A DNA stretch of 64,000 bases, taken from NCBI RefSeq assembly GCF_036971445.1, contig NC_091472.1, positions 187,860,001 to 187,924,000 of the forward strand, read 5' to 3'. Both the position numbers and the translations under genes were made by a program. Below the pieces are notes generated by a model. That model worked only from the letters and a program-made list of their open reading frames with translations. It did not search any database and was not told the DNA's origin. This document shows, piece by piece, positions 1,035 through 64,000 of this stretch; within the stretch, counting starts at the first letter, position 1, and the number at the start of each line of letters is the position of its first letter. The DNA is from Narcine bancroftii. Lineage: Eukaryota.

Positions 1035-4000
1035 CTATTGAAAGAACAAGTAACAAGACAACCAAAAATATCACTGCATTTGATTTGATTAGAAATAACA
1101 TTTCACAAATATGGTACAACACTTTCTGCATCAATGCAGGCAAAATCAGGGATTTATAAATTTGGCAAATCTTGAGTTATTGGCCTGAACCTCTTTCAAC
1201 TCCATGATTGTGCTACTCAAATATGTTCAACTGCTGGGATACCATGTTAAGACTGTCAAGAGTCAAAAAAATAAACTTACTAACTAGTTACGGATCTGTG
1301 ATACAAAATAAACTTTCATAAATCATTATACTGAAGGCTATAATTAATCTTAAAGCCTCAAATGTGAGTTATTCAACACCAATGAAACCAGTTATAATTG
1401 ACATTTTCCATTTAATTGTACCTGCAAAACAACAAGAACATCTAGCTGTTGATTTTTACTGTACATCTCAAAAGCAATTCGAAAAAGTCCCTGAATGCTG
1501 TAAAACCACAGACTGTTCACCATGATCGGCATCTTCAGTCCTTCAAATCGAAATTCTGAAAATAAATATGTACAGAAATCATAATTGAGTTGAAATGGGT
1601 AAAGAAAATAAAAAGTGTAGTTTATTTTATAGTCAACATGTGGATGTTAAGAATTGAAAGATGAGCTGATAGAGCCCATTTCTGTGCTGTACATTTCCAA
1701 TTGAGATTAGAGGCCATGTAATCATTTGGCACATGGAGGTCACTGTGTAAGTGATATTTTGGAGGAGATATAATCATAAATATGAATTATCATTCCACAG
1801 TTTTACATGGTTTTAGGTTCTTTGTGCTTTTAAACAAAGTGCTAATGTATTACCTGAACTAAAATTGAGTTTCGTTGCCAATCCTCTCTTTGCAAATTTT
1901 GCATGAATTCTTGGATGATTTTCAGTGCGAATGCTAGTTTTTGCAATAACATCAGCACCAAGAAAAAGGGGAATCAAATTCTCCTAAAGGTGGGAAAAAA
2001 ATTAAACTTTGAAAGAAATATATTAACAGATATAATGTACATCAACCTTGGTTTTATTTACTTATAAGAAATTAATGTTTCCAAATTGAATTATCTGATA
2101 CTTGAGCACAGTAAATTTGCAGCTTTCAACCAGTCAGTAAAATAGCCTAACTCTAAAATGAGACTTGGAGAGGTAGAATGGACAAATCAGAGGTTAGATC
2201 CCTCTGATTCAAGTCTTTACTAACCAAAATTACACTTGCTGTACTAAATCCAGAGTTCTGTAGGCTTCTAATTAAATTAGCAAATTTGTGAATGACACCG
2301 ATGAATGGGATTGTAGATAGTGAAGGTGGTTGTCAAAGATTGCAGAAGGATCTCTCAGGAAGAGGAATGAATGGCTGTTGAAATTTAATACAAAGAAGTG
2401 CAAGGTGTTACACTTTGGGAGGTCTAACATAAGTAGGACATAAACAGTGAATGTTGAGATCGAAGCATTGAGATTGAGGTTGGTCAAATAGGCCTTCAGT
2501 ACATTAGCCTTCATAAGTCAGAGAACTGAGTACAGAAGTTGGGAATGTAGAAAATCCTTTGCCAGAATCGGTAACCAGAGGGAGGAGAGATTTAATGGGA
2601 ACGATGAGGTAAATTTTGTGTTTTTATAGAGGGTGGTGGATGCATGCAATAGGCTGCCAGAAGAAGTTGATGCAGGTACTTTGGGCAGTGCTAAAGAAAA
2701 AAAAATTGGGCAGATTAGATATGGGTCAAATACGAGCAGAAAGGACGTGGAAAAAATTTGAGCTGAAGAGCTTGTTTCCACGATCTGGCTTTATTAAACA
2801 TCCAAATGAAAGGATTAATCAACCTAATTGAAGTGTGTAATTTAATACAATTATTGAATCATTTTTCATTATCGGGTTGAGACCATCAAACAATGACAGT
2901 CACCAGTAACTTCGAAGAAAACTCCTACAAAAGTATCTCAATCTGCGGGGAGAAATTTTCCCATGTCATTGCCAAGGAATAGGTGGCACAGACTTGCTGT
3001 GGTGTATGACGGGTGATATCAGCAAATCTCGTTAAATAATTCACTCATCCAGTATTGCAGGAAGCTATAAAACCCATTATTTTCAAGCACTGTGTTGACT
3101 TGCCCAGTAAATACCCTAGCCGGACTCTCCGTTCTATGCTCATTGAACTTTCTAATTGAGCAAATTGATCGTCTGTTCGCAGGAGAACCCTTCTCACTCT
3201 TCTTGATACGAGTAAACAAACAAAATTTTACATGTATCAATGCTGTTGAATCAACACATTACAAGTGTTTCAAATTTACAGCACCTGCAAGGAAGAGTCT
3301 TGATTGTTGCCAAATTCAATCCATTGACATAAAATATTAAAAAAACAATTTTACACAGGCCGTTTCGGCCCACGAGCCGGTACAATTTTGAACGGGGGGT
3401 GGGACGGAGCCCGGGGTGGGGGGGGGGGTGGGACGGAGCCCGGGGTGGGACGGAGCCCGGGGTGGGGCGGAGCCCGGGGTGGGGGGGGGGTGGGACGGAG
3501 CCCGGGGTGGGGGGGGGGGGGGGTGGGACGGAGCCCGGGGTGGGGGGGGGGGGGGGTGGGACGGAGCCCGGGGTGGGGGGGGGGGGGGGTGGGACGGAGC
3601 CCGGGGTGGGGTGGGGGGGGGGTGGGACGGAGCCCGGGGTGGGGTGGGGGGGGGGTGGGACGGAGCCCGGGGTGGGGTGGGGGGGGGGTGGGACGGAGCC
3701 CGGGGTGGGGTGGGGGGGGGGTGGGACGGAGCCCGGGGTGGGGTGGGGGGGGGGTGGGACGGAGCCCGGGGTGGGGTGGGGGGGGGGTGGGACGGAGCCC
3801 GGGGTGGGGTGGGGGGGGGGTGGGACGGAGCCCGGGGTGGGGTGGGGGGGGGGTGGGACGGAGCCCGGGGTGGGGTGGGGGGGGGGTGGGACGGAGCCCG
3901 GGGTGGGGTGGGGGGGGGGGTGGGACGGAGCCCGGGGTGGGGTGGGGGGGGGGTGGGACGGAGCCCGGGGTGGGGTGGGGGGGGGTGGGACGGAGCCCGG

Positions 4001-4577
4001 GGTGGGGTGGGGGGGGGGTGGGACGGAGCCCGGGGTGGGGTGGGGGGGGGGTGGGACGGAGCCCGGGGTGGGGTGGGGGGGGGGTGGGACGGAGCCCGGG
4101 GTGGGGTGGGGGGGGGGTGGGACGGAGCCCGGGGTGGGGTGGGACGGAGCCCGGGGTGGGGTGGGGGGGGGGTGGGACGGAGCCCGGGGTGGGGTGGGGG
4201 GGGGTGGGACGGAGCCCTGGGGTGGGACGGAGCCCTGGGGGGGGTGGGAACCGCGGCCCAGTCCCGATCTCTGGCGCTGGCCGCTCCACCAACCGTGGCG
4301 CCCGCAACAACGCCGCTGTGTGAATTCGGGGGGTCAGAGACCGTGATGGACGGCAAGGGCCCCGAGCGAACGAACGTTCTGTAGATTATATTTTAGAGAA
4401 GCTGGGTTGCATTTTAACACCTAATCGGAATGCAGTAATCTTTAGAATACCAACCTCTACCTGAAAATCCTGGCCTAAGGTAAGGGAATTGGACGAACTC
4501 AAGAAGACGAATCGGTATTTCCTGGCGCCCACGCTCCATTCTGGGAAACAGACGGGTAAGCGCTCAACAGAGGCCAT
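159..4577 (-). CDS. Uncharacterised 4-exon gene, 418 aa; exons 4577-4461, 1983-1854, 1555-1422, 1034-159
   Basis: Manual splicing: all three introns are GT-AG with compatible phases (117+130+134+876=1257 nt). Continuous ORF MASVERLPVCFPEW...GQDFQ|ENLIPLFLGADV...NFSSE|FRFEGLK...VVLQ|NLWKARIGD...VLYSSLIYK*. Family not recognised. Confidence 0.82.
1422..1555 (-). CDS. Exon 3 of the uncharacterised gene
   Basis: tttcag acceptor, CAG|gtac donor, open frame FRFEGLKMPIMVNSLWFYSIQGLFRIAFEMYS. Confidence 0.82.
1854..1983 (-). CDS. Exon 2 of the uncharacterised gene
   Basis: ctttag acceptor, CAG|gtaat donor, open frame ENLIPLFLGADVIAKTSIRTENHPRIHAKFAKRGLATKL. Confidence 0.82.
2275..2775 (+). mobile_element. 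Degenerate CR1-like LINE fragment
   Basis: Remnants of CR1 RT C-terminal motifs (SKF.DDT, FN..KCKV.HFG) and a CR1-type 3' region. Confidence 0.55.
3385..4250. repeat. G-rich minisatellite, ~31-bp unit GGGGTGGGACGGAGCCCGGGGTGGGGTGGGGG
   Basis: Directly visible tandem array; explains the low-complexity ORFs at 3337-4384. Confidence 0.95.
4461..4577 (-). CDS. Exon 1 of the uncharacterised gene
   Basis: aacATGG Kozak-like start in the CpG island; CAG|gtagag donor in phase 0, matching exon 2. Confidence 0.72.
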
Positions 4578-38825: not shown

Positions 38826-41257
38826 TGTCCAATGTGACTACTTTGCCCTCTTCTGAGGTTATGTTCTCTGCTGATTTTTTTATTTTACTTTTATGAATTT
38901 TCAAACTCAACAATCCATAATGGAAAAAAAAACACTACATTCTCCAATTATATACAAGCTTCACCATCGTCCAATTTTACTCTCCCATCCCCAATCCTTT
39001 TCACTATTAATATATCCAAAGACCAAATTAAATACGCAGTCACCCTAAAGAAAACAAGTCCCTTATTCCTGTAACATTTATCAATATCCCTTCCTGACAA
39101 GTTAGACATATCGGTAAAGGTTCAAAAAGTAAAACAAAACAATTACACCTAAAAAATTCTTACAAAAAAGTAAAAACCCAAAGGAAAAAGATGTAATAGT
39201 AGGATGCGTTGGGACCCCACCACCAGCCATCACTTTTTTGAATTTTTGTATCTCAATCTGATTACGATGGACCCACCCCCAAGGAGGGAGTAGGCAGGAG
39301 CAGACAGCGATGAAGCACAAGGGACTGCACTATATCTTTGCACCTATCTGACCCAGGTACTGTTGCCAAATTTTAAGGAGGTTGTCATATTTCCTCCTTA
39401 GGTTACAGGTAATTTTCTCTGGGGAACACAGCTCTGCATTTCCACATTCCAACACGCAATGCCTAGATGAGAGTCCAATTTCCAGGTATCTGCTATGCAC
39501 TACCTGGCCACCACCAAAGTGATAAACACAAATTGGATTTGAAATTTGGACAGCTTCATCGTAAACCTTGTGTCCATGATCTTTCCCAACAGGAACAACT
39601 CTGGGTCCTGTGAACACTCTTTACCTATGATTTTCTCTAGGACTTAGCCAAGCTCTACCCAAAAGGGCCTCACCTTGGAGCATGACCAGGTTGGGTGCAC
39701 AAAGGTTCCTATCTCTATGTCGCACCTAAAACATTGATCTGAAATTTCTGGCTTAGTCTTGTTCAATTTCTGCAGCGCATAGTACAACTGGTGTAGAAAA
39801 TTATACTGCATCAGCCTGTATTGAGTATTAATAATTGAGGTAATGCTGTCACGACATAGGTCTGACCAGCACCTTTAATCAATCGTTACACCCAAGTCTG
39901 ACTCCCACCATGGGCTAGATTTATGAAGACCCATCTTCAGGCTTTCGGCTTGGAGTAAGAAATACATTGCCTTAATAAACTTTCAACTCCCCTTTCAAAT
40001 CAGTGCCACTGCACACTAGTAGGACTGTAGCTGGACCTAATTTGTCCCATTTTAAAAAAAAACCTTAACTGAAGATAGCAAAAGAATTTCCTCTTTGACA
40101 AATCATATTTATTTTTAAGTTGTTCAAATGACATCATCTGACCCTGCTCATCGCAGTCTTTGATACACCTAATCCCTTTCTGGCACCAGGTGTTCAGGAT
40201 CTTGTTACCTATTGTCCATGGTATTAAGCCATCCTGAGTCAGGGCTGTTTTTGAAGATAACTTCACTTTAAATCCAATGCATTGATTAATCTTGTTCCAT
40301 GCATAAAAAATATGTTTTAATAAGGGAGTGTCTTTGTCCCCAGATAACAATTTAGAGTCCAATTTATAAATAAAGCATTTGCTATCTTCTCACCTATCGT
40401 GTGCAGACCAGTTTGTCCCCAGGGTGGTATATCTCCTCCCTCAAACAGTGAAGTGATATACCTTGACTGTGCTGCCCAATAATTTTTTTTAATTTTTTTT
40501 ATTTTTCACACTATGAACCATACTGACCAAAATACACACAAACATTTCCCTCTTGAATATACACAGTGTCATTTTCTCCCCCTTTCCCCCCTCCCTTCCC
40601 TCCCTCCTTCACCCCCTCCCCACCCACTCAACATTTAACATATATGATACATTAAACAATGTCATCACACAATGAAAATAAACAAGAAATTTGTGTCTTC
40701 TACTTTTATATACTGGGTCAGTTCATTTTGTCTTCTTCTCCTTCTGTCATTTTAGGTGGTGGAGGTCCGTGGTAGGACTTCTCTGTTGTGTTCCATGTAC
40801 AGTTCCCAAATTTGTTCGAATACTGTGATGTTATTTCTTAAATTATATGTTTTTTTTCCCAATGGAATACATTTATTCATTTCTATGTACCATTGCTGTA
40901 TTCTCAGGCTATCTTCTAATTTCCAGGTTGACATAATACATTTTTTTGCTACAGCTAAGGCTATCATAATAAATCTTTTTTGTGCTCCATCCAAATCGAG
41001 TCCAAGTTCTTTACTTCTTATATTACTTAGAAGAAAGATCTCTGGATTTTTTGGTATGTTGCTTTTTGTGATTTTATTTAACATCTGGTTTAGATCTTCC
41101 CAAAACTTTTCCACTTTCTCACATGCCCAAATTGCATGTACTATTGTTCCCGTTTCCTTCTTACAGCGAAAACATCTATCTGATACTGTTGGGTCCCATT
41201 TATTTAACTTTTGGGGCGTGGTGTATATCCTGTGTAACCAATTATATTGTATCATGC

Positions 41258-42031
41258 TGTAATGGAGGATTAAAACCATGTACCCAGATGCTTTTTGCTT
41301 ATGTGGAACTGACGACACTGGGTCCACACGCAGGTCACCTTACTTTCAGAACTAGCAGATGTAATTAAACTCAGCCATGGGGACTTATCTGAAGATACAC
41401 TTTGAAATGGAATTCCACTGTGAGGCCCAGGGAAAGCAGTTGTCAAATGCAACACTCTGAAATTGACGAATTGGTCACAACCTGTCTTGCTCGAGAAGTT
41501 TTAATAAGTCTTTGTATCTACGAGATAAACCAGGAAATTATAACATCCTGGTTCCATAATAATTAATCTTCTAAATTGTAGAATGTAATGTTCAGTTTTG
41601 ATTTTGACTGACAAATATTAGAAGGAGTAGGCGCATGATTAATTGTTTTTGGGGTATATAAGCCTGTGGTCCTGCTGCTGAAGTTTAGACTCTCCGAGGG
41701 GTGGGAACACCCCTTGTCAAGAAGGAAGAACAGCCAGAGTCCGAGCAACGTCCCGGTCGGGGGAGGTGGAGAAGCTGCTACCAGCGCCCTGACAACCTAC
41801 TACAAGTGTGCAGTTGTTGCCTCGCTTCGGCAGTTGGGACCAGTCCAAGCGTTGATAAGTATAGTTGGGAAGGGCTTGCATATTGTAGTGTGAAATCAGC
41901 TTTTGAATTAGTAATAAACATTTGTATAAACTGAACTGCTCTCGGTGTGTGTGTCTATTTTCTTTCGGTAGCTCAAACACTGTGACCAATCTAAAATGAA
42001 CAAAATGAGAGGTATAAGTTTACCCAAGACA
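41258..42031 (+). repeat. ERV 5' LTR (774 bp)
   Basis: TGTAATGG...CCAAGACA; TATATAA 41655-41661; AATAAA 41913-41918. Confidence 0.95.
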
Positions 42032-42033
42032 AT

Positions 42034-42051
42034 TGGCGCTGCGAGCAGGGT
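42034..42051 (+). other. Primer-binding site, tRNA-Ser-like
   Basis: TGGCGCTGCGAGCAGGGT 2 nt after the LTR; near-complementary to vertebrate tRNA-Ser(TGA/CGA) 3' ends as recalled. Confidence 0.8.
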
Positions 42052-42061
42052 TGGTCTCAAG

Positions 42062-43186
42062 ATGTTTCGCCGAAAGAAAGAGGTGAGCCCTGAGCAGTTC
42101 TTGATTCCTGGATGGACTTCCAAAGACGATGGGTTTGGCATGTTGGCCAATACCTTGTCTTTGTTGGGACCACCCATTAGTTGGGATGAGAAGTTAGACT
42201 CATCAAGTGCACCTCTGGGAGAGCGGGTTGCCACTCTCCTTCGAGAAAGTAAATTTCCTGATAAAAAGGGAACGCTGACGAATGGTTTTTGGTTGCTGGC
42301 CACAGCATTACGCCACTCCGTTCAGCGTGAAGCAGAATTAATTCAAAGAGAAGTAGAATCTCAGTGCAAAAGAAAGCAATTAGAGGAGGAGCTAGAAGTC
42401 CTGCGACAATGCTGTTCCATGATGAGCGAGATTGTTCACACCAGTCAGGACAGAGCCAAAGAATGGGAAGATAAGCATGTCCAAATGATTTGCCGTGATA
42501 TTAAACTCCGGCAGCAGCTCTGTGCAGATAAGGAAAGGCATGGAGTAGAACCCGATTCATATCGTATTCATGCCATGATAAGGAATGGTGACGATCCTGA
42601 TGTAATTGAGGATTGGGATGGGAATATCTGGAATGACAATGGTAATAATGCAGATACTCCTCAGCATGTGTCTAACATACTACCCTCTCCATCTGCTGTT
42701 CACGCCCGCCCTATAAGGCAGCAGATTTCCCAAACAGACAGAAGGGAGGATGATGTAAGGGTAGAGATGGAAGGGATAGATACCCCGGTTTCCCATGTGG
42801 ACCCAGGGGAAAATACCCAAACCCCTGCTTATGCTCTATGGCCTACTCCCTCTGTTGGATGGCCTCCACCTCCTCCCCTAGACTGGGTGGAGGACCCTGT
42901 GAGCCAAAGTGGGAACAGGGGTCGGAAGGAGTCAATGATCCGTGATTTCTCTGTAAAAGAGCTGGCTGCCATTGGAGATCGATTTAGGCAAAAAGCAGGG
43001 GAACATCATCCCCAGCTGCTGAGTCCTCCTGGCCCAGCTGTGCTTTCTGCTCCCACTGCTGCTTCTATCGAGCTGGCTTCTCCTGCTCCAGTTACTCATG
43101 ATGAGGTAAAACAATGGGTTAAACAGGCTCTTAAAGATAACAATAGCATGTGGTCCTGGAAGCCCCCAAACCCTTCTGAAGCCTGA
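42062..43186 (+). CDS. gag: ERV Gag (capsid region apparently deleted)
   Basis: First ATG after the PBS (MFRRKKE); coiled-coil N-half, WDGNIW, RDFSVKEL..IGDRFRQKAGE class III gag motif; ends at TGA in frame with pol. Confidence 0.8.
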   Translation: MFRRKKEVSPEQFLIPGWTSKDDGFGMLANTLSLLGPPISWDEKLDSSSAPLGERVATLLRESKFPDKKGTLTNGFWLLATALRHSVQREAELIQREVESQCKRKQLEEELEVLRQCCSMMSEIVHTSQDRAKEWEDKHVQMICRDIKLRQQLCADKERHGVEPDSYRIHAMIRNGDDPDVIEDWDGNIWNDNGNNADTPQHVSNILPSPSAVHARPIRQQISQTDRREDDVRVEMEGIDTPVSHVDPGENTQTPAYALWPTPSVGWPPPPPLDWVEDPVSQSGNRGRKESMIRDFSVKELAAIGDRFRQKAGEHHPQLLSPPGPAVLSAPTAASIELASPAPVTHDEVKQWVKQALKDNNSMWSWKPPNPSEA

Positions 43187-45622
43187 AGGTGTGGGCAGGA
43201 TTCCCGTGTCTACTCCATCGAGACACGGCGCACACACGGGGATCCGCGGCCCTACATACCGTTAACAATCCACTGGGGTGGGGGTAATGATCGCCAATAC
43301 TTGGCTTTGGTCGACACCGGTGCAGAGCACTCGGTGATTCCTGGTAATCCCAACCTCTGGACTGGACCGGCCTTTCGAATAGAGGGGTTGGGAGGAGCGG
43401 TCACCCTGGCAAAGGAAATAAAAGTCTGTGCCATGGTGGGTGATAGCCCTTCCCCTGTCTGGTTACATGCCCTGGTGGCTGCTACTGACGAGTGTATCCT
43501 GGGTATTAATATGTTGGCCGGTATGGCCCTTAATACTAGCCAAGGGGGATTTGAATTTGGAATTCGAACTATTACAAAAAAACTAGTAGTGGGTCAGGTT
43601 AAGTGGGATCCTGTGATGGTGCCAGCCCCCATGAAACCAGTGTGCATTCCACAATATCGTCTCCCTGGGGGGCAGGAAGAGATTACTGCCACCATCGATG
43701 CTCTGCAAGAAGAAGGGGTAGTGAGGCCCGCAACGTCGCCCTTTAATAGCCCTGTTTGGCCGGTCCAGAAGCCGGACGGCTCCTGGAGAATGACAGTTGA
43801 TTATCGTTTTTTGAACAAACATGCCCCACCACTTGCTTCAGCAGTTCCGGACATTGTCACCCTTATTGAAAACATTGCTACTGGGAACTCAGGAACATGG
43901 TATGCTGTCATTGATCTTGCTAACGCCTTCTTCAGTATTCTTATAGCTGAGGACTCACAGGATCAGTTCGCCTTTACCTGGAAGGGGCGCCAGTATACCT
44001 TCACCCACCTTCCAGTATCGCCTTCCCTCTCAATTCACCATTATATTGATGATGTGGCCTCCTGGAGCCTCTGGCAGAAACAAGAGGGTCGCCGAGTCCC
44101 ACTGGGATTCTGGTCACGTACCATGCCTGAGGCTGCCACTCGTTATTCTGCTTTTGAACAACAGTTACTAGCCTGTTACTGGGCCCTGCTAGAGACTGAA
44201 AGAATGACAGGCGATGCAGATGTTCAATTGCGACCTGCACTTCCTATAATGAATTGGGTCCTGGCTAATGATGCTAATCTAAAGATCGGGCGGGCTCAGC
44301 AGTCTTCTATTGTTAAATGGAAGTGGTATATTCAGAGTCGTGCGACCAGAGGGCCTGAAGGGGTGGGCCGCGTACACGAACAGGTGGCTTACCATCCCAG
44401 GTCAGGAACTCACTTATCGGAGGAGGGGGATGGTGGCTCCAGTCAGTATGCTGAGTTGAAGGCAGTCACTTTACCACTAGATCCCCATGATCACCCTCTT
44501 CGCCTGTTTACTGATTCCTGGGCTTTGGCTAATGGACTTGTGGTATGGATGCCTGATTTGCAAAAGAACAACTGGATGATACATGACCGCCCAGTATGGG
44601 GCAAAGAGTTGTGGCAGCTGTTGTGGGATGCTTCCCACCATCGTGAGATAACCGTTTATCACGTTGATGCCCATACCAATATGGCGACTAACATGGCTCA
44701 ACATAATGCAGTAGCAGATCAGCTTGCCACTATCAGCTGTGCTGATACCGTCCCCCTGGCTCGATGGGCACATGAACAGAGTGGTCATTTGGGGGAGAAG
44801 GGATCAGCTATGTGGTCCCGTACACATGCTTTATCCGTCCATCAGGATGATGTCCGCATGGTCGTACGTACATGCCCAGAATGTCAGCTTGTGAAGTTCC
44901 ATACCATTCCACCTGGTCCACATGGCCGAATAAAATGGGGTGCTCACTCAGCTGCGGTCTGGCAAATTGATTACATAGGCCCCATGCTAGACTGTATGGG
45001 TAAATATTATATCCTAGTAATGGTTGACACCTTTTCGGGCCTGGTTTTTACTTTTCCCACCAAGACGGCTGACCAAGCTAGCACTATCCAAGGACTAAAC
45101 CATTTGATTTATCGTTATGATGTTCCAGAGGAGATTCACTCTGATAATGGCTCGCACTTCTCCAGGAAAGCAATCTGTGATTGGGCAAATGACAACGGTA
45201 TTTTATGGATCCACCATATTCCTTATTACCCGCAGGCTGCCGGGTTAGTTGAACAAATGAACGGCTTACTGAAGGAACAAATTCGTTTGGAAACATCACT
45301 GGGGACCCAGAAGGGATGGTGCCATGTGCTGCAGCAGGCAGTCGACAATTTGAATCATCGCCCTTTAAAAGGAGGTACACCTTTCCACCGACTTCTTCAC
45401 GCTTCTGAACTACAGCCTATTCCAGAGGAAAAACAGTCATTGCCCCCCATCCCTGAACTAGAGAATGTTGGACAAAAGGTATGGGTGGCACCACCAGGTA
45501 GTGGCCCTCCTGTAAAAGGGGAAATAGTGACACCTGCCCAGGGTAACACTCGGTGGGTAGCTATTGAGGGACAGGATGATTTAGTCTGTTTAAACACTGA
45601 ATGCTTATGGTATCATGAGTGA
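43187..45622 (+). CDS. pol: ERV Pol: protease - truncated RT - truncated RNase H - integrase
   Basis: Open from the gag stop: DPRPYIPLTIHWG, LVDTGA, DLANAFF, YIDD, AELKA/TDS, HHCC and D-D(35)-E. Confidence 0.93.
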   Translation, partial: RCGQDSRVYSIETRRTHGDPRPYIPLTIHWGGGNDRQYLALVDTGAEHSVIPGNPNLWTGPAFRIEGLGGAVTLAKEIKVCAMVGDSPSPVWLHALVAATDECILGINMLAGMALNTSQGGFEFGIRTITKKLVVGQVKWDPVMVPAPMKPVCIPQYRLPGGQEEITATIDALQEEGVVRPATSPFNSPVWPVQKPDGSWRMTVDYRFLNKHAPPLASAVPDIVTLIENIATGNSGTWYAVIDLANAFFSILIAEDSQDQFAFTWKGRQYTFTHLPVSPSLSIHHYIDDVASWSLWQKQEGRRVPLGFWSRTMPEAATRYSAFEQQLLACYWALLETERMTGDADVQLRPALPIMNWVLANDANLKIGRAQQSSIVKWKWYIQSRATRGPEGVGRVHEQVAYHPRSGTHLSEEGDGGSSQYAELKAVTLPLDPHDHPLRLFTDSWALANGLVVWMPDLQKNNWMIHDRPVWGKELWQLLWDASHHREITVYHVDAHTNMATNMAQHNAVADQLATISCADTVPLARWAHEQSGHLGEKGSAMWSRTHALSVHQDDVRMVVRTCPECQLVKFHTIPPGPHGRIKWGAHSAAVWQIDYIGPMLDCMGKYYILVMVDTFSGLVFTFPTKTADQASTIQGLNHLIYRYDVPEEIHSDNGSHFSRKAICDWANDNGILWIHHIPYYPQAAGLVEQMNGLLKEQIRLETSLGTQKGWCHVLQQAVDNLNHRPLKGGTPFHRLLHASELQPIPEEKQSLPPIPELENVGQKVWVAPPGSGPPVKGEIVTPAQGNTRWVAIEGQDDLVCLNTECLWYHE

Positions 45623-46046
45623 CATGTGTCAGGCTTCTTTGTTCCAGGTTCTCCATTTTACACTCCTGGTGATCTGGCTTAACAGCTGCTTTGATGCCAG
45701 CAATTGGATTTGTAATGTCGAGGACGTTCCAAGGGAGTTACCCGTGGGAAACACGGTCCGATGCATTACACCAAGGAAGTCCTCGGTCACCAGCCTCAAG
45801 TGCAGCTTATATAAATATGTTATTGTTCAGCATGTTTCAAAATCTGTTCGTGAGCTCCAGTACCTGGGTATTGTGGCCAACAAGGATAATTTGAGCCTTG
45901 GTTGGAATCCTTTCTCATGGCTAACTGCTACATTTGGGGGGGTGGGCCACACTATCCTCCGTTGGTTGCTCGCGTCATTGCTTATCTTTGTAATTGTTGT
46001 TTTGATTTCTCTTTTTTCGCTCCCTCTGTACTCAAATACTGGTTAG
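45615..46046 (+). CDS. env: ERV mini-Env (signal-like segment plus C-terminal TM); probably expressed via splice 42082^45648
   Basis: Env position; hydrophobic VLHFTLLVIWL; WNPFSWL followed by TM ILRWLLASLLIFVIVVLISLF. Confidence 0.65.
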   Translation: MSDMCQASLFQVLHFTLLVIWLNSCFDASNWICNVEDVPRELPVGNTVRCITPRKSSVTSLKCSLYKYVIVQHVSKSVRELQYLGIVANKDNLSLGWNPFSWLTATFGGVGHTILRWLLASLLIFVIVVLISLFSLPLYSNTG

Positions 46047-46071
46047 GCCTCGCAAATGACAGATTGTGACC

Positions 46072-46082
46072 AAGGGGTGGGA
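46072..46082 (+). other. Polypurine tract
   Basis: AAGGGGTGGGA abutting the 3' LTR TG. Confidence 0.85.
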
Positions 46083-46856
46083 TGTAATGGAGGATTAAAA
46101 CCATGTACCCAGATGCTTTTTGCTTATGTGGAACTGACGACACTGGGTCCACACGCAGGTCACCTTACTTTCAGAACTAGCAGATGTAATTAAACTCAGC
46201 CATGGGGACTTATCTGAAGATACACTTTGAAATGGAATTCCACTGTGAGGCCCAGGGAAAGCAGTTGTCAAATGCAACACTCTGAAATTGACGAATTGGT
46301 CACAACCTGTCTTGCTCGAGAAGTTTTAATAAGTCTTTGTATCTACGAGATAAACCAGGAAATTATAACATCCTGGTTCCATAATAATTAATCTTCTAAA
46401 TTGTAGAATGTAATGTTCAGTTTTGATTTTGACTGACAAATATTAGAAGGAGTAGGCGCATGATTAATTGTTTTTGGGGTATATAAGCCTGTGGTCCTGC
46501 TGCTGAAGTTTAGACTCTCCGAGGGGTGGGAACACCCCTTGTCAAGAAGGAAGAACAGCCAGAGTCCGAGCAACGTCCCGGTCGGGGGAGGTGGAGAAGC
46601 TGCTACCAGCGCCCTGACAACCTACTACAAGTGTGCAGTTGTTGCCTCGCTTCGGCAGTTGGGACCAGTCCAAGCGTTGATAAGTATAGTTGGGAAGGGC
46701 TTGCATATTGTAGTGTGAAATCAGCTTTTGAATTAGTAATAAACATTTGTATAAACTGAACTGCTCTCGGTGTGTGTGTCTATTTTCTTTCGGTAGCTCA
46801 AACACTGTGACCAATCTAAAATGAACAAAATGAGAGGTATAAGTTTACCCAAGACA
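46083..46856 (+). repeat. ERV 3' LTR (774 bp)
   Basis: Copy of the 5' LTR at constant offset 4825; five ORF-track translations identical. Confidence 0.95.
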
Positions 46857-48307
46857 CATGCGTAACCTCGTGTTTATTGCATCTGCTCAACATTTGGAAG
46901 AAGATTCACATAGAAAGGAATAAAACAAATTAGCAACTACCAAAATTAATATTGACTCAAAATCAACTAATCCCTGTCACAATAGATAACCTTTCATTTA
47001 GAGAATGGGAGAGAAAAGGGATTAAAAGAATAGAAAATTGTTTTTTGGGAAATAAATTATTATTTTTTGAACAAATGAAGGACAAATATGGTATAACTCA
47101 TGGTACAATGTTTGCATACCACCAACTGAAAACCTTCTTGAAGGACAAATTTGGAAGCAGGCTGAGGTTACCAGAAGGAAGCAATTGTGAATATATGATT
47201 ACAGACACAATGATAATTAAAAGATTTATAACAAACATGTACATCAAACTGCAAGAGAAAGAGTATGAGGAAACAAGCTGTAAACCCAAACAAAAATGGG
47301 AACAAGATCTAAACATAAAGAATGAAACATGGGAAAAGCTATGCCCAATAATATTTCTTAAAGTTTGGTGATCTCAGTGCTCGGACTGTAATCCCAGGTT
47401 AATTTTGGCAAGGAAACCATGGTCACTCTCCTATTTCAAATTAACCTACTTACCTGTGAATTAAAATTCTGAAAGAATTTCCAGGGCAACACCATGGGCA
47501 AAGTCTGGAAGAGGTACTGAAGCCTCGGCAACACATTCAACTTGATCAATTGACCCTGCCCATCAACATGATGGGAGGGTCATCCATGTGCTTAGGTCCT
47601 CAAATTTTTTGAGCAAGGGTGTATATATAAATTTTGCAGATTATTGTCCACCCTGACTCCCAGGTACTTAATCCCTTTATGTGGCCATTTCAATTGACTG
47701 CTTTATTTAAATTGACAATAATCCCCTTTTGTAAGTGGCATAACTTCACTCGTGTCCCAATTGATCTTTTACCCAGAGACTTTCCCATAATCCTCCAGAG
47801 TAGAGTGAAGCTTGGCCAGCGAAGTTGCCGGGTCTGTCATCATCAAGAAATAGGTTGACTTTGTGTTCTTCCCAGCCCACTCTGAGCCCCTTGAAGTCTG
47901 GATCCTGTTGTATACCTTCAGTCAATGGTTCTATAGCCAAAATGAATAGAGCTGAAGACAATGGACACCCCTATCTACTAGATCTCAATAGAAGGAAGGC
48001 TGGAGATATTTGCCCATTCATCACAACTTTAGCCTTGGGCATCTTGATCCAATTTATAAAAATTGACCCTCATCCCAATTTCTCCAGTACCTTAAACAGG
48101 AAATTTCATTCTAACCTATCAAACACCTTCTCAGTATCCAGGGCTACAGCGACACTTGGGTCATCCCTTGACTGTGCCAAATGTATGATACTCAGCAATC
48201 TGTTTATATTATCTGCAGCCTGTCCTTTTTTGCAGAAAGCCCGGTTGGTCTACATTAGTTAGCTTTGGCAAATGCTTCACCGATCTACTTGCCAGGGCCT
48301 TCACAAG

Positions 48308-57613: not shown

Positions 57614-58259
57614 TCTGGTTTGGGTGCTAATAAGATGAAAATTCTGCATTGGGAAGCATATAGATGATGTGGAAGAAGCTTGAAGGCCAAAAAATGACGT
57701 AAAGGAAAAGAGTACTTAAAATAAATGGATATTCTGTACAGTTGGCCACTGATAAGCAAAGAAAGTTGAAATAAGACTGTGTCACAGTGAATTACCTATC
57801 ATGATAATTGAAGGAGGAGCTCGGAAGGCACTCACATCTTTGTGTGTACCTTTAGAGAATCATTTAGAACAAGAATAAAGATGAAGGATTGTACAGGAAT
57901 TGGCTCCAATCCAAAAAGCTTTTTGGGAATTAGATGAAAGTTCAAGCCAATCATTTTGGCTTAAGTGGAGATTTGTAAAATATGTGACAATTAAATAGTC
58001 ATTAATAAGATAACTATTGTAGATTTATAGATTTCCATTAGGAAGCTTTAGTAGACAACTGAAAGTTCTTGTTTCTGGGCTACATGCAACTGTTCCATAA
58101 CTTAAAAATATGAAGGAGTGGAAGAACCAATATTTTGAACTTCAATTACAATTAAAATGGGCAGTATTGCATCAAGGTGCCTCAAGCAGGCGAATAATGC
58201 TTTTGTTCCCTGGCTATTGTCTGCAATGAATGCTGGCTATGTTTACAAGAGATGCCTCA

Positions 58260-61200
58260 TCCCCCCATTCTCCCCCATCCGCCCATTCTCCCCCATCCGC
58301 CCATTCTCCCCCATCCCCCCATTCTCCCCCATCCCCCCATTCTCCCCCATCCCCCCATTCTCCCCCATCCCCCCATTCTTCCTCACCCCCCCCAGTCTTC
58401 CTCACCCCCCCAGTCTTCCTCACCCCCCAGTCTTCCTCACCCCCCAGTCTTCCTCACCCCCCAGTCTTCCTCACCCCCCAGTCTTCCTCACCCCCCCATT
58501 CTTCCTCACCCCCCCATTCTTCCTCACCCCCCATTCTTCCTCACCCCCCCATTCTTCCTCACCCCCCCATTCTTCCTCACCTCCCCATTCTTCCTCACCC
58601 CCCCATTCTTCCTCACCCCCCCATTCTTCCTCACCCCCATTCTTCCTCACCCCCCCATTCTTCCTCACCCCCCCATTCTTCCTCACCCCCCCATTCTTCC
58701 TCACCCCCCCATTCTTCCTCACCCCCCCATTCTTCCTCACCCCCCCATTCTTCCTCACCCCCCCATTCTTCCTCACCCCCCCATTCTTCCTCACCCCCCC
58801 ATTCTTCCTCACCCCCCCATTCTTCCTCACCCCCCCATTCTTCCTCACCCCCCCATTCTTCCTCACCCCCCATTCTTCCTCACCCCCCCATTCTTCCTCA
58901 CCCCCCCATTCTTCCTCACCCCCCCATTCTTCCTCACCCCCCCATTCTTCCTCACCCACCCCATTCTTCCTCACCCCCCCATTCTTCCTCACCCCCCATT
59001 CTTCCTCACCCCCCATTCTTCCTCACCCCCCATTCTTCCTCACCCCCCATTCTTCCTCACCCCCCATTCTTCCTCACCCCCCATTCTTCCTCACCCCCCG
59101 TTCTTCCTCACCCCCCGTTCTTCCTCACCCCCCGTTCTTCCTCACCCCCCGTTCTTCCTCACCCCCCGTTCTTCCTCACCCCCCGTTCTTCCTCACCCCC
59201 CGTTCTTCCTCACCCCCCGTTCTTCCTCACCCCCCGTTCTTCCTCACCCCCCGTTCTTCCTCACCCCCCGTTCTTCCTCACCCCCCGTTCTTCCTCACCC
59301 CCCGTTCTTCCTCACCCCCCGTTCTTCCTCACCCCCCCAGTCTTCCTCACCCCCCCAGTCTTCCTCACCCCCCCAGTCTTCCTCACCCCCCCAGTCTTCC
59401 TCACCCCCCCAGTCTTCCTCACCCCCCCAGCCTTCCTCACCCCCCCAGCCTTCCTCACCCCCCCAGCCTTCCTCACCCCCCCAGCCTTCCTCACCCCCCC
59501 AGCCTTCCTCACCCCCCCATTCTTCCTCACCCCCCCATTCTTCCTCACCCCCCCATTCTTCCTCACCCCCCCATTCTTCCTCACCCCCCCATTCTTCCTC
59601 ACCCCCCCAGTCTTCCTCACCCCCCCAGTCTTCCTCACCCCCCCAGTCTTCCTCACCCCCCCAGTCTTCCACACCCCCCCAGTCTTCCACACCCCCCCAG
59701 TCTTCCTCACCCCCCAGTCTTCCTCACCCCCCCAGTCTTCCTCACCCCCCCAGTCTTCCTCACCCCCCCAGTCTTCCTCACCCCCCCAGTCTTCCTCACC
59801 CCCCCAGTCTTCCTCACCCCCCCAGTCTTCCTCACCCCCCCAGTCTTCCTCACCCCCCCAGTCTTCCTCACCCCCCCAGTCTTCCTCACCCCCCCAGTCT
59901 TCCTCACCCCCCCAGTCTTCCTCACCCCCCCAGTCTTCCTCACCCCCCCAGTCTTCCTCACCCCCCCAGTCTTCCTCACCCCCCCAGTTTTCCTCACCCC
60001 CCCAGTCTTCCTCACCCTCCCAGTCTTCCTCACCCCCCCAGTCTTCCTCACCCCCCCAGTCTTCCTCACCCCCCCAGTCTTCCTCACCCCCCCAGTCTTC
60101 CTCACCCCCCCAGTCTTCCTCACCCCCCCAGTCTTCCTCACCCCCCCAGTCTTCCTCACCCCCCCAGTCTTCCTCACCCCCCCAGTCTTCCTCACCCCCC
60201 CAGTCTTCCTCACCCCCCCAGTCTTCCTCACCCCCCCAGTCTTCCTCACCCCCCCAGTCTTCCTCACCCCCCCAGTCTTCCTCACCCCCCCAGTCTTCCT
60301 CACCCCCCCAGTCTTCCTCACCCCCCCAGTCTTCCTCACCCCCCCAGTCTTCCTCACCCCCCCAGTCTTCCTCACCCCCCCAGTCTTCCTCACCCCCCCA
60401 GTCTTCCTCACCCCCCCAGTCTTCCTCACCCCCCCAGTCTTCCTCACCCCCCCAGTCTTCCTCACCCCCCCAGTCTTCCTCACCCCCCCAGTCTTCCTCA
60501 CCCCCCCAGTCTTCCTCACCCCCCAGTCTTCCTCACCCCCCAGTCTTCCTCACCCCCCAGTCTTCCTCACCCCCCAGTCTTCCTCACCCCCCCAGTCTTC
60601 CTCACCCCCCCCCCAGTCTTCCTCACCCCCCCAGTCTTCCTCACCCCCCCAGTCTTCCTCACCCCCCCAGTCTTCCTCACCCCCCCAGTCTTCCTCACCC
60701 CCCCAGTCTTCCTCACCCCCCCAGTCTTCCTCACCCCCCCAGTCTTCCTCACCCCCCCAGTCTTCCTCACCCCCCCAGTCTTCCTCACCCCCCCAGTCTT
60801 CCTCACCCCCCCAGTCTTCCTCACCCCCCCAGTCTTCCTCACCCCCCCAGTCTTCCTCACCCCCCCAGTCTTCCTCACCCCCCCAGTCTTCCTCACCCCC
60901 CCAGTCTTCCTCACCCCCCCAGTCTTCCTCACCCCCCCAGTCTTCCTCACCCCCCCAGTCTTCCTCACCCCCCCAGTCTTCCTCACCCCCCCAGTCTTCC
61001 TCACCCCCCCAGTCTTCCTCACCCCCCCAGTCTTCCTCACCCCCCCAGTCTTCCTCACCCCCCCAGTCTTCCTCACCCCCCCAGTCTTCCTCACCCCCCC
61101 AGTCTTCCTCACCCCCCCAGTCTTCCTCACCCCCCCAGTCTTCCTCACCCCCCCAGTCTTCCTCACCCCCCCAGTCTTCCTCCCCCCCCAGTCTTCCTCC

Positions 61201-61425
61201 CCCCCCAGTCTTCCTCCCCCCCCCCAGTCTTCCTCCCCCCCCCAGTCTTCCTCCCCCCCCAGTCTTCCTCCCCCCCCAGTCTTCCTCCCCCCCCCAGTCT
61301 TCCTCCCCCCCCCAGTCTTCCTCCCCCCCCAGTCTTCCTCCCCCCCCAGTCTTCCTCCCCCCCCCCAGTCTTCCCCCCCCCCCAGTCTTCCTCCCCCCCC
61401 CCCAGTCTTCCTCCCCATTCTTCCC
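58260..61425. repeat. C-rich minisatellite, 18-20-bp unit (CCCCCCCAGTCTTCCTCA and variants), ~3.15 kb
   Basis: Directly visible; explains the ~1000-aa low-complexity ORFs. Confidence 0.97.
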
Positions 61426-62443
61426 TTTGAGAATTTTTCAACAAAATGACATAAGGGCTGTGGAATTAAGGGATTATAGCTGCATGAAAACTGAATTGGC
61501 AAGAACTATGGATATGAGTGGATTGCTTTTTAGTTGAAAGATGCAATATATTAGTTGTTCCCCCAGGGGTCGAATTAGCAACTACTAATATTTTTAGATT
61601 TTTCCGAATGACCTAAATTCGTGTTTAGGGGATGATAGTGAAATGAATGGGCAATGCACTTTAGAGAGATTTAATGTCAAAAGAAACTATTCTGGCACAA
61701 TTTGAAAATTATGAGCGTAGATTTCAGTTCTCATTTATACAAATCCTTAAAAGGTTGCAGGAAAGTTGATTTTTAAAAAAAAAGCATTCGAGCTACTTGT
61801 GTTTATAAATAGAAGTGAAAGCGATCATGTTTAACATTGTAAGTCTCTGACTTCATATGAATTATTTTTCTGATTACCACATCAGACAAGATGCAAAAAA
61901 CATCAGAAAAAGAACAGAATCTAGAGTTCATTGCATTTTTGTAATTTTATGTTATGAGGGAAGTTGGGAAATTTCTTCTTGAAGCTTGGAGATTCAACTT
62001 CTTGTGCAGTGCACAAAAATGCTGGAGAAACTCAGCAGGTCCTGCAGCATCCATGGAAAGTAAAAGACATTTGAAATTTCAAGCCTGACTCCTTCTTCAG
62101 GTGTGCCAAAAATCAGACAGTCCCCTGAATTTAAAAAGGTATGGCCAAGGGGAAGAAAGAGGAAAAGTCGTTTTCATGATGTAGATTTTAAAAGGACGTC
62201 GGTCTGGTGAGGGGTTGATGAAAAATCTATTGGGAAAGAAGAGAAATTCAGGGGCTTTTGAATCTAAAAGATGTACCTGAAAAGTGTCATTTTCTTTTGC
62301 ACCAGGATTATTGTGAATATTTATATCTATCTTGCATATTTATTTTCTTCTTAATTCAATTAGTTTACTATTATAGTTTTTCCCTTTTAGTAGAACCTGT
62401 TCAGCTTCAGCAATAAGAATTTTAGTGCAAAATTATCATCATG

Positions 62444-63246
62444 CAAAGTGGTGGTAACTGATTCCAGCAACATGGACCATAGTTGGAGAGATACCTGAAG
62501 GGTTTAAGTTGTGCACCAAAGTGGTGGTAACTGATTCCAGCAACATGGACCATAGTTGGAGAGATACCTGAAGGGTTTAAGTTGTGCACCAAAGTGGTGG
62601 TAACTGATTCCAGCAACATGGACCATAGTTGGAGAGATACCTGAATGGTTTAAGTTGTGCACCAAAGTGGTGGTAACTGATTCCAGTAACATGGACCATA
62701 GTTGGAGAGATACCTGAAGGGTTTAAGTTGTGCACCAAAGTGGTGGTAACTGATTCCAGCAACATGGACCATAGTTGGAGAGATACCTGAAGGGTTTAAG
62801 TTGTGCACCAAAGTGGTGGTAACTAATTCCAGCAACATGGACCATAGTTGGAGAGATACCTGAAGGGTTTAAGTTGTGCACCAAAGTGGTGGTAACTGAT
62901 TCCAGTAACATGGACCATAGTTGGAGAGATACCTGAAGGGTTTAAGTTGTGCACCAAAGTGGTGGTAACTGATTCCAGCAACATGGACCATAGTTGGAGA
63001 GATACCTGAAGGGTTTAAGTTGTGCACCAAAGTGGTGGTAACTGATTCCAGCAACATGGACCATAGTTGGAGAGATACCTGAATGGTTTAAGTTGTGCAC
63101 CAAAGTGGTGGTAACTGATTCCAGTAACATGGACCATAGTTGGAGAGATACCTGAAGAGTTTAAGTTGTGCACCAAAGTGGTGGTAACTGATTCCAGCAA
63201 CATGGACCATAGTTGGAGAGATACCTGAAGGGTTTAAGTTGTGCAC
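62444..63246. repeat. 73-bp tandem repeat, 11 copies
   Basis: Unit caaagtggtggtaactgattccagcaacatggaccatagttggagagatacctgaagggtttaagttgtgcac; 803 = 11 x 73. Confidence 0.97.
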
Positions 63247-64000
63247 CAAAAGCAGAGAGGTGGGATGATGCACTGCTTCTCATATCTGTATGCCAACAGA
63301 ATGGAAATTGTCTTAGTCTAAGATTTGTAATACAGATAAAAACCGATTAAATCCTTGAGATTGGAAAGGGGATGAATTATGGACAGCAATTGAGGGATTA
63401 CTGTATACATCTGTGTAAATCTCAAAGTTGCTATGGATTTTGTATTGTTAAGGCAGTGGACAGCAGTAGTTTTGAAATTATTACAAAATTTGGGCCATAA
63501 CTATTTCTATAGTAAAATTTTATATATTATTTGCATACTGCAGCTTGGCTATTAAAATGGGTATGTTGTTGAATTTGGGGTTTTAGTTCCATAGGTTAAA
63601 AATCTTCCATCTTGTAAATTAGTTCCACTCACGGCAAGAATTTTGGAGGTAACATGCAGTGTTACAGAGATAAATATTAGGGCAATGACAGTCTTCACTG
63701 AGAAGAGGCCCATATTGGACATCAGCTAAATTTGAGGAAGGTGCTCCATGGTCCATCCCAGTCAATGAAAGGCCTTTGTGAGGTTGAAAGACATAGACCG
63801 TTTGGTACTGCTTTACATTTCTTATAGAATTGCCATGCAGTGAAGATCATGTCCACTATATATGTGTATGGTCAGTATCCACTTTGATGCAGAGGGCAGC
63901 TCTTTGACCATTGGGAAGATGTATTTGAAAAGACCATGACAGTGTTTCACTATTGCCTTCAGTGCATCAGTACAAAAACAGATCATGACCTCAAAAGGCG

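Follow-up and report, generated by a model that had tools for sequence, protein, structure and literature searches.

A young, internally deleted XtERV-S-like retrovirus subfamily and its putative helper proviruses in the genome of the ray Narcine bancroftii

How does a retroviral insertion with two identical long terminal repeats (LTRs) come to exist when it has lost parts of the genes that would copy it? Such an element lies at positions 41253–46861 of the window analysed here, a 64,000-nt stretch of the genome of the ray Narcine bancroftii (NC_091472.1, positions 187,860,001 to 187,924,000). The initial annotation described it as a very recent class III, ERV-S-like insertion that implied a still-active helper provirus or exogenous virus. 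We found that the window copy is real, young and defective, and that it is not singular but an ordinary member of a subfamily with at least 440 copies. The finding is the family: a recently amplified XtERV-S-like retrovirus with an open env in a ray, outnumbered about 10:1 by a passenger that keeps its reading frame. We consider it highly probable that the window copy is a young, internally deleted XtERV-S-like element, one that full-length proviruses elsewhere in this genome likely copy in trans.

A clean integration primed by tRNA-Ser

The element reads along the forward strand between two copies of CATGC (41253–41257 and 46857–46861), which form a perfect, unstranded 5-bp target-site duplication (TSD), as originally described. 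Its 5′ LTR (41258–42031) and 3′ LTR (46083–46856), each 774 nt long and bounded by TGT...ACA, have the same sequence; a pairwise comparison gave 0 differences over 774 nt, again as first read. The 5′ LTR contains a TATA-like box at 41655 and AATAAA at 41913. Two bases after it begins an 18-nt primer binding site (PBS; 42034–42051), all 18 bases of which are complementary to the 3′ terminus, CCA included, of a tRNA-Ser(CGA) that this genome encodes, which supports the proposed serine priming. A polypurine tract (46072–46082) directly precedes the 3′ LTR. The interior between the LTRs, 4,051 nt, is heavily deleted.

The target was a host long interspersed element (LINE) fragment on the reverse strand (40752–41257, with a zf-RVT match), which resumes beyond the right TSD. 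The empty target 25-mer, a LINE motif, occurs uninterrupted 2706 times in the genome, indicating that the insertion is a clean integration into a repeat. Because the empty motif is this frequent, read joints that skip the element, seen in 4/4 sequencing runs, reflect paralogues and are uninformative, and we rejected them as evidence of polymorphism. None of the 40 candidates scored represented a second haplotype of the flank. The target LINE looks 5′-inverted: in the interval 40473–47366 the flanks match one LINE copy in opposite orientations, and the outer ends carry a 25-nt repeat (84%).

Five in-frame deletions disable the copy

Despite its open frames, the copy is incomplete when set against database relatives and undeleted copies of the same genome. 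gag (42062–43186) is open and ends in TGA; pro-pol (43187–45622) follows in the gag frame with 811 open codons; an env remnant occupies 45648–46046. Pol keeps the protease DTG (43313), the YIDD motif (44042) and the integrase HHCC and D,D,E motifs (44771–45262). Five blocks are missing, and the length of every one is a multiple of three. The central gag block (678 nt, near 42991) is probably the capsid region, judging by its position. Pol lacks 66 nt near 44009, corresponding to a palm motif of reverse transcriptase (RT), 450 nt near 44050 (RT thumb and connection) and 177 nt near 44385 (the RNase H N terminus, including its first catalytic motif). The env gap (1089 nt, near 45820) covers most of the surface subunit and the transmembrane ectodomain, and the remnant retains a signal-peptide-like start and a membrane-anchor end. 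From the established anatomy of RT and capsid, a copy with these losses should be unable to reverse-transcribe or package itself.

The deletion junctions show microhomology of 1–10 nt. We rejected splicing as the source of the deletions, as their ends are not GT..AG (in one alignment per copy) and the microhomology fits template switching. Six copies (L150, L151, L192, L226, L229 and L233) contain the 678-nt gag block and lack the other four, which suggests that the gag deletion came last.

A large subfamily of young, non-autonomous copies

The window copy has many near-identical relatives. In an LTR search, all of the best 40 of 1945 candidates, the ones scored, were about 100% identical, and 150/150 scored matches in an RT search were at least 98% identical. 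Exact motif counts across the whole genome, which are lower bounds, gave 440 copies of the RT deletion junction, 676 of the LTR–PBS junction, 43 of the young undeleted RT motif and 30 of the young env motif; by these counts the deleted subfamily outnumbers undeleted young copies by the tenfold ratio given above. Among the first 60 copies fetched, 57 were complete at 5.58–5.60 kb, and 56 of these 57 had a 5-bp TSD. The next 63 (60 new copies, mostly with shorter frames, and three incomplete ones from the first set) yielded 46 complete copies, 41 with a 5-bp TSD.

The LTRs were identical in 47 of the 103 complete copies and differed in 56, with a mean LTR difference of 0.21%. At 30 LTR loci, variants common to both LTRs of one provirus tended to be missing at other loci, and private indels were found in both LTRs of the same copy. 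Such locus-specific variants, together with the 56 copies whose LTRs differ, argue that LTR identity is not a family-wide assembly collapse, an objection anticipated when the insertion was first described.

The PBS occurs in three main variants (42, 34 and 30 of 114 copies), two of which match host tRNA-Ser(CGA) and tRNA-Ser(TGA) genes. Switching among variants fits re-templating by the primer and would thus point to repeated reverse transcription. Two of five tRNA-pattern matches were rejected as tRNA genes, being proviral PBS copies. In the proviral copies L031 and L032, the PBS is lengthened to at least 22 bases of tRNA-Ser sequence. Like non-autonomous endogenous retroviruses (ERVs) of the IAP 1Δ1, ETn and VL30 kind, the subfamily has lost essential coding parts and kept the LTR, PBS and polypurine tract, consists of many young copies with their own TSDs, and coexists with a coding-competent helper.

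Full-length proviruses that could act in trans

To find undeleted relatives, we used as query the stingray RT-thumb segment that is missing from the window copy. These relatives are of two kinds, old decayed copies with LTRs about 2–9% apart and young copies. Twelve young undeleted copies were fetched (8.05–8.49 kb, both LTR ends found), and 11 of them had 0–5 LTR substitutions. gag, pol and env were all open in 8 of 22 longer young copies (627, 1043 and 518 codons, stop to stop), four of the 22 giving no readout because the probe missed. The helper predicted by the initial annotation thus has a counterpart in young full-length proviruses with three open frames. A full-length copy has RVP, RVT_1, RT_RNaseH, RT_RNaseH_2, RNase_H, rve and TLV_coat domains. 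Helper Env has the TLV_coat match, CXXC, a furin site, an immunosuppressive motif (ISD) and CX6CC. Helper Gag has PSAP, where the window copy reads LSAP, and no Cys-His box.

On contigs C15, C23 and C9, some young full-length copies sit within satellite arrays of short period and occur as duplicates with a TSD in common. The young full-length copies have LTRs of either 773 or about 988 nt, an internal duplication making the difference. The same genome also contains another class III family, a decayed one (L066–L069), which is closer to the stingray protein P0110 (59–67% in the RT thumb).

From the sequences, mobilization in trans by these helpers is likely. LTR-driven RNA of the deleted copy would be packaged by helper Gag, helper RT would reverse-transcribe it from host tRNA-Ser, and integration would create the 5-bp duplication. 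The two lineages have also exchanged tracts: 9 of 114 deleted copies, in two sublineages, contain helper-type tracts, and copies in which RT is whole have an env remnant and 3′ end that are 96–99% identical to those of the deleted lineage. Exchange in both directions fits co-packaging.

The open frame: kept or accidental

If the copies cannot replicate themselves, why do they remain open? One possible explanation is that the long frame has been kept for translation in cis, serving RNA stability or packaging, and not for the proteins; we regard this part of the proposal as evenly balanced. In Rous sarcoma virus, early gag stops are reported to trigger nonsense-mediated decay and to lower packaged RNA (PMC9143442). 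The alternative, to which we give somewhat less than an even chance, is that the element is the same non-autonomous one and its open frame an accident: template switching at short repeats would favour joins that preserve the frame, and the copies would have had too little time to decay. The probability that all five deletions are in frame by chance is 0.004 if each length is equally likely to fall in any third, and about 0.015 under a null that takes microhomology into account. Restricting the test to the four deletions in gag-pol gives a p of about 0.04, a value that an accident could accommodate, as could the microhomology at the junctions and the fact that direct repeats of 9–10 nt in the coding region are in frame 61–71% of the time.

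Changes within the subfamily bear on the same question. We analysed 114 copies and the window copy, having removed two that duplicated one locus and four whose identity was 97% or less. The 114 were drawn from the 150 best RT matches and chosen by frame length, so that broken copies are over-sampled. We counted non-CpG changes not seen in relatives, from gag to RNase H, and divided them into private and shared changes. Stops made up 16 of 283 private changes and 1 of 123 shared changes (p = 0.028); this depletion of inherited stops is not expected of an accidental frame. Private indels comprised 31 frameshifts and 10 in-frame events, yet the two widely shared indels (in 4 and 8 copies) are in frame, and a single frameshift is shared (by 2 copies). 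By contrast with stops, missense changes were close to neutral: the missense to silent counts were 194/73 for private changes and 49/26 for changes common to at least three copies (p = 0.25), where a ratio of about 2.6 is expected. We therefore rejected the idea that the deleted copies are selected for their proteins, whether integrase or protease working in cis or any other, given also that integrase stops are inherited. Near-neutral missense changes and depleted stops from gag to RNase H suggest that the proteins are not selected and that the 5′ frame may be.

The gag stop provides a further observation that an accidental frame does not predict. All 13 relatives compared have TGA there, but a sense codon has replaced it in 47 of 114 deleted copies, giving a fused gag-pol frame; this fused-frame sublineage arose and expanded. 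The label switches twice on the local tree. Fused-frame copies have fewer LTR differences (1.0 versus 2.3 in the others, p = 0.044) and so look younger.

Several points weigh against our proposal. The frame statistics are modest, and the five deletions, which may lie on one lineage, are not independent trials of selection. One gag frameshift and one early pol stop are each common to two copies. Integrase stops propagate, as an accidental frame would allow: 67 of 114 copies stop at 45431, 63 codons early, and six stop at 44927, before the integrase catalytic core. As for the helpers, across gag-pol the window copy is 83–92% identical to them and about 86–96% identical to the old decayed copies, which indicates that the deleted lineage came from older stock and that today's helpers are not its parent. 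Overall, the evidence for selection on a translatable RNA is suggestive, not strong.

Env splicing and the route of spread

We compared four sequencing runs over all contigs, two guessed to be RNA and two DNA; no run that holds the element is recorded as RNA. A joint that skips 3565 nt was present in both RNA-like runs and was not listed for the two DNA runs. Its size equals the length of a GT..AG intron at 42083–45647, with the donor at 42083, after gag codon 7, and the acceptor at 45647, before the env remnant. The joint is the env splice expected of a retrovirus and shows transcription at the level of the family, which is not proof for this locus. Through it, gag codons 1–7 are joined in frame to the hydrophobic leader of env, and the signal peptide thus begins with Gag residues, much as in avian sarcoma-leukosis viruses.

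In one RNA-like run, a second GT..AG intron within the LTR (41859–41971, and the same place in the 3′ LTR) is spliced, again at the family level, and its removal takes out the AATAAA. In the run with this joint, loose ends also extend into sequence that is not viral, and chimeric transcripts may thus arise by read-through from family LTRs. Runs X6 and X10, labelled as two other organisms, contain 60% and 41% of the element's words, and sister runs of the same samples contain next to none. Cross-contamination is the likely source, and we did not use these runs as evidence for a shared insertion.

The deleted genome might instead spread by reinfection, in enveloped particles supplied by circulating or provirus-made virus, and not by retrotransposition within the cell. 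Open env in the young helpers, with its CXXC, furin site, ISD and CX6CC, would suit such a route, as would the mostly silent changes on the helper branch (163 silent, 99 missense), also in the parts of env compared, and the env splice in both RNA-like runs. However, env-deleted copies with a whole RT and identical LTRs exist, and env-less forms at high copy number fit intracellular spread, an established pattern reviewed in PMC6466679. We consider reinfection unlikely as the route.

Age of the insertion

The description 'very recent' holds in that the insertion is young and its LTRs are identical, but its age is bounded only to under 0.9–8.8 million years (My). With 0/774 differences, the limits are 0.9, 1.9 or 8.8 My at 2.2 × 10⁻⁹, 1 × 10⁻⁹ or 2.2 × 10⁻¹⁰ changes per site per year; the first and last rates are from PMC4422223, where the last is assumed for elephant shark, and 1 × 10⁻⁹ is a round figure. 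The slow rate leaves room for the view that the burst is over: the insertion would then be a fixed relic with an age of some million years, and slow evolution of ray genomes would make it look new. At 2.2 × 10⁻¹⁰ the mean age of the family would be 4.9 My, and some of the eight open-frame helpers are segmental duplicates that share a TSD. Open-frame helpers nevertheless occupy at least four distinct TSDs, and the nearest neighbour of a copy differs from it by a few bases over 4 kb (the median is 5 for fused-frame copies). The CpG observed/expected ratio is 0.46–0.50 inside the element versus 0.12–0.15 in the flanks, and spliced RNA is seen in the RNA-like runs. On balance, a finished burst seems doubtful to us, and we retain the reading of a young copy likely mobilized in trans.

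A relative of XtERV-S

The closest of 235 protein matches, 97% identical, is labelled Narcine bancroftii, in agreement with the cartilaginous host first suspected; the next matches are near 40%. The full-length copy shows the retroviral order protease, RT, tether, RNase H and integrase, and a retroviral env. It is very improbable that the element is a Gypsy element or an assembly artefact, as the tether and separate RNase H domains, the TLV_coat Env and a structural-database match of RT to the murine leukaemia virus and foamy enzymes at 165 bits outweigh the sole support found, a weaker Ty3 match (88–92 bits), and the LTR variants and TSDs are locus-specific.

In an RT tree of 38 rows (midpoint root, one database match omitted for short overlap, no rows labelled ERV-L, HERV-S, SnRV, spumavirus or Gypsy), a stingray element is the sister of the ray protein (97/88), and both fall in a clade (98/95) that includes a Xenopus XtERV-S-like protein. 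The RT core shares 56.6% identity with a Xenopus protein in which the spacing of motifs agrees with that of the Xt-S2 copy of XtERV-S. The proposed class III, ERV-S-like assignment gains from the TGT...ACA ends, 5-bp TSD, YIDD, serine PBS and single gag-pol frame split by TGA. Two features of XtERV-S and ERV-L proper are lacking: no dUTPase follows integrase in Pol, including that of full-length relatives, and a pattern search of Gag did not find a GQR motif. The capsid of the full-length copy gave no Pfam match. Since the diagnostic features tested are shared except for dUTPase and GQR, the family is a relative of XtERV-S, not XtERV-S or ERV-L proper. HERV-S, for its part, has a serine PBS and an env.

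XtERV-S of Xenopus tropicalis, as described in PMC8278194, shares with the ray family the LTR ends, TSD length and serine PBS, the gag/pol frame split by TGA, DTG, YIDD, PSAP and the lack of a Cys-His box, as well as a gamma-type env with CXXC, ISD and CX6CC and the co-occurrence of young intact and deleted copies. The ray family differs in lacking dUTPase and GQR, in its integrase spacing (D-57-D-35-E) and in its host. In the ray family the env splice donor falls within gag codon 7 and hence past the PBS, whereas that of XtERV-S is predicted upstream of it; and the deleted copies of the ray family number at least 440 with a long frame kept, compared with 19 for XtERV-S. ERV-L and HERV-S (features in part from Table 2 of PMC8278194) resemble the ray family in YIDD, the 5-bp TSD and pro in the pol frame, and ERV-L, unlike it, is env-less and has dUTPase.

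A parallel case is mouse intracisternal A particle (IAP) 1Δ1, as described in PMC6466679 and PMC7411935: this deleted, non-autonomous subtype accounts for more new insertions than its helper does, and its deletion fuses gag and pol in a single frame that is reported to act in cis. The IAP deletion is a single one, of 1.9 kb, in a class II element that has no env, whereas the ray element is class III with five. In the ray, moreover, fusion came from loss of a read-through stop in a sublineage, and unlike in IAP 1Δ1, cis action is proposed from sequence statistics. ERV-SA.a-Ppe, from an anamniote survey that included six cartilaginous fish (bioRxiv 2021.11.23.469661), also combines a class III Pol with a class I env; it is termed SnRV-related there, and its host, judging by the abbreviation, may be a sawfish. 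The CmiERV lineages of elephant shark (PMC4422223) are env-bearing ERVs in a cartilaginous fish too, but they are described as SnRV-like or epsilon-like, with LTR divergence of 2.4–3.3% and ages of more than 50 My, as against the low mean LTR difference and open frames of the ray family.

Discussion

Outside the element, the window contains tandem arrays with 95–98% matches at 58255–61413 (177 copies of 18 nt), 3394–4143 (23 of 33 nt) and 62444–63250 (11 of 73 nt), which account for long spurious open reading frames at 3251–4392 and 58139–61537.

Our literature search found no paper that mentions both Narcine bancroftii and retrovirus, and no description of the ray family. Few intact class III proviruses with a class I env have been published; XtERV-S is termed an unusual example in a 2023 review (PMC10536682). 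Retroviruses of cartilaginous fish are reported to be spread throughout the retroviral tree (PMC6001957). Against the old elephant-shark ERVs, the family is likely a sign of recent retroviral activity in cartilaginous fish.

A more far-reaching reading, which we hold tentatively and think improbable as a whole, is that an env-bearing class III retrovirus is still replicating in the ray, as a living counterpart of the ERV-L/S fossils. Selection for an unbroken frame, whatever the protein sequence, would have shaped its defective passenger step by step, and the passenger would thereby have converged on the gag-pol fusion of IAP 1Δ1.

The family combines young copies open in gag, pol and env with spliced env RNA and passengers in the hundreds, and so marks cartilaginous fish as a place to seek a live virus of the ERV-L/S type. 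It also offers a possible source of insertion markers, and a natural experiment that bears on whether defective retroviral genomes owe their success to translation in cis.

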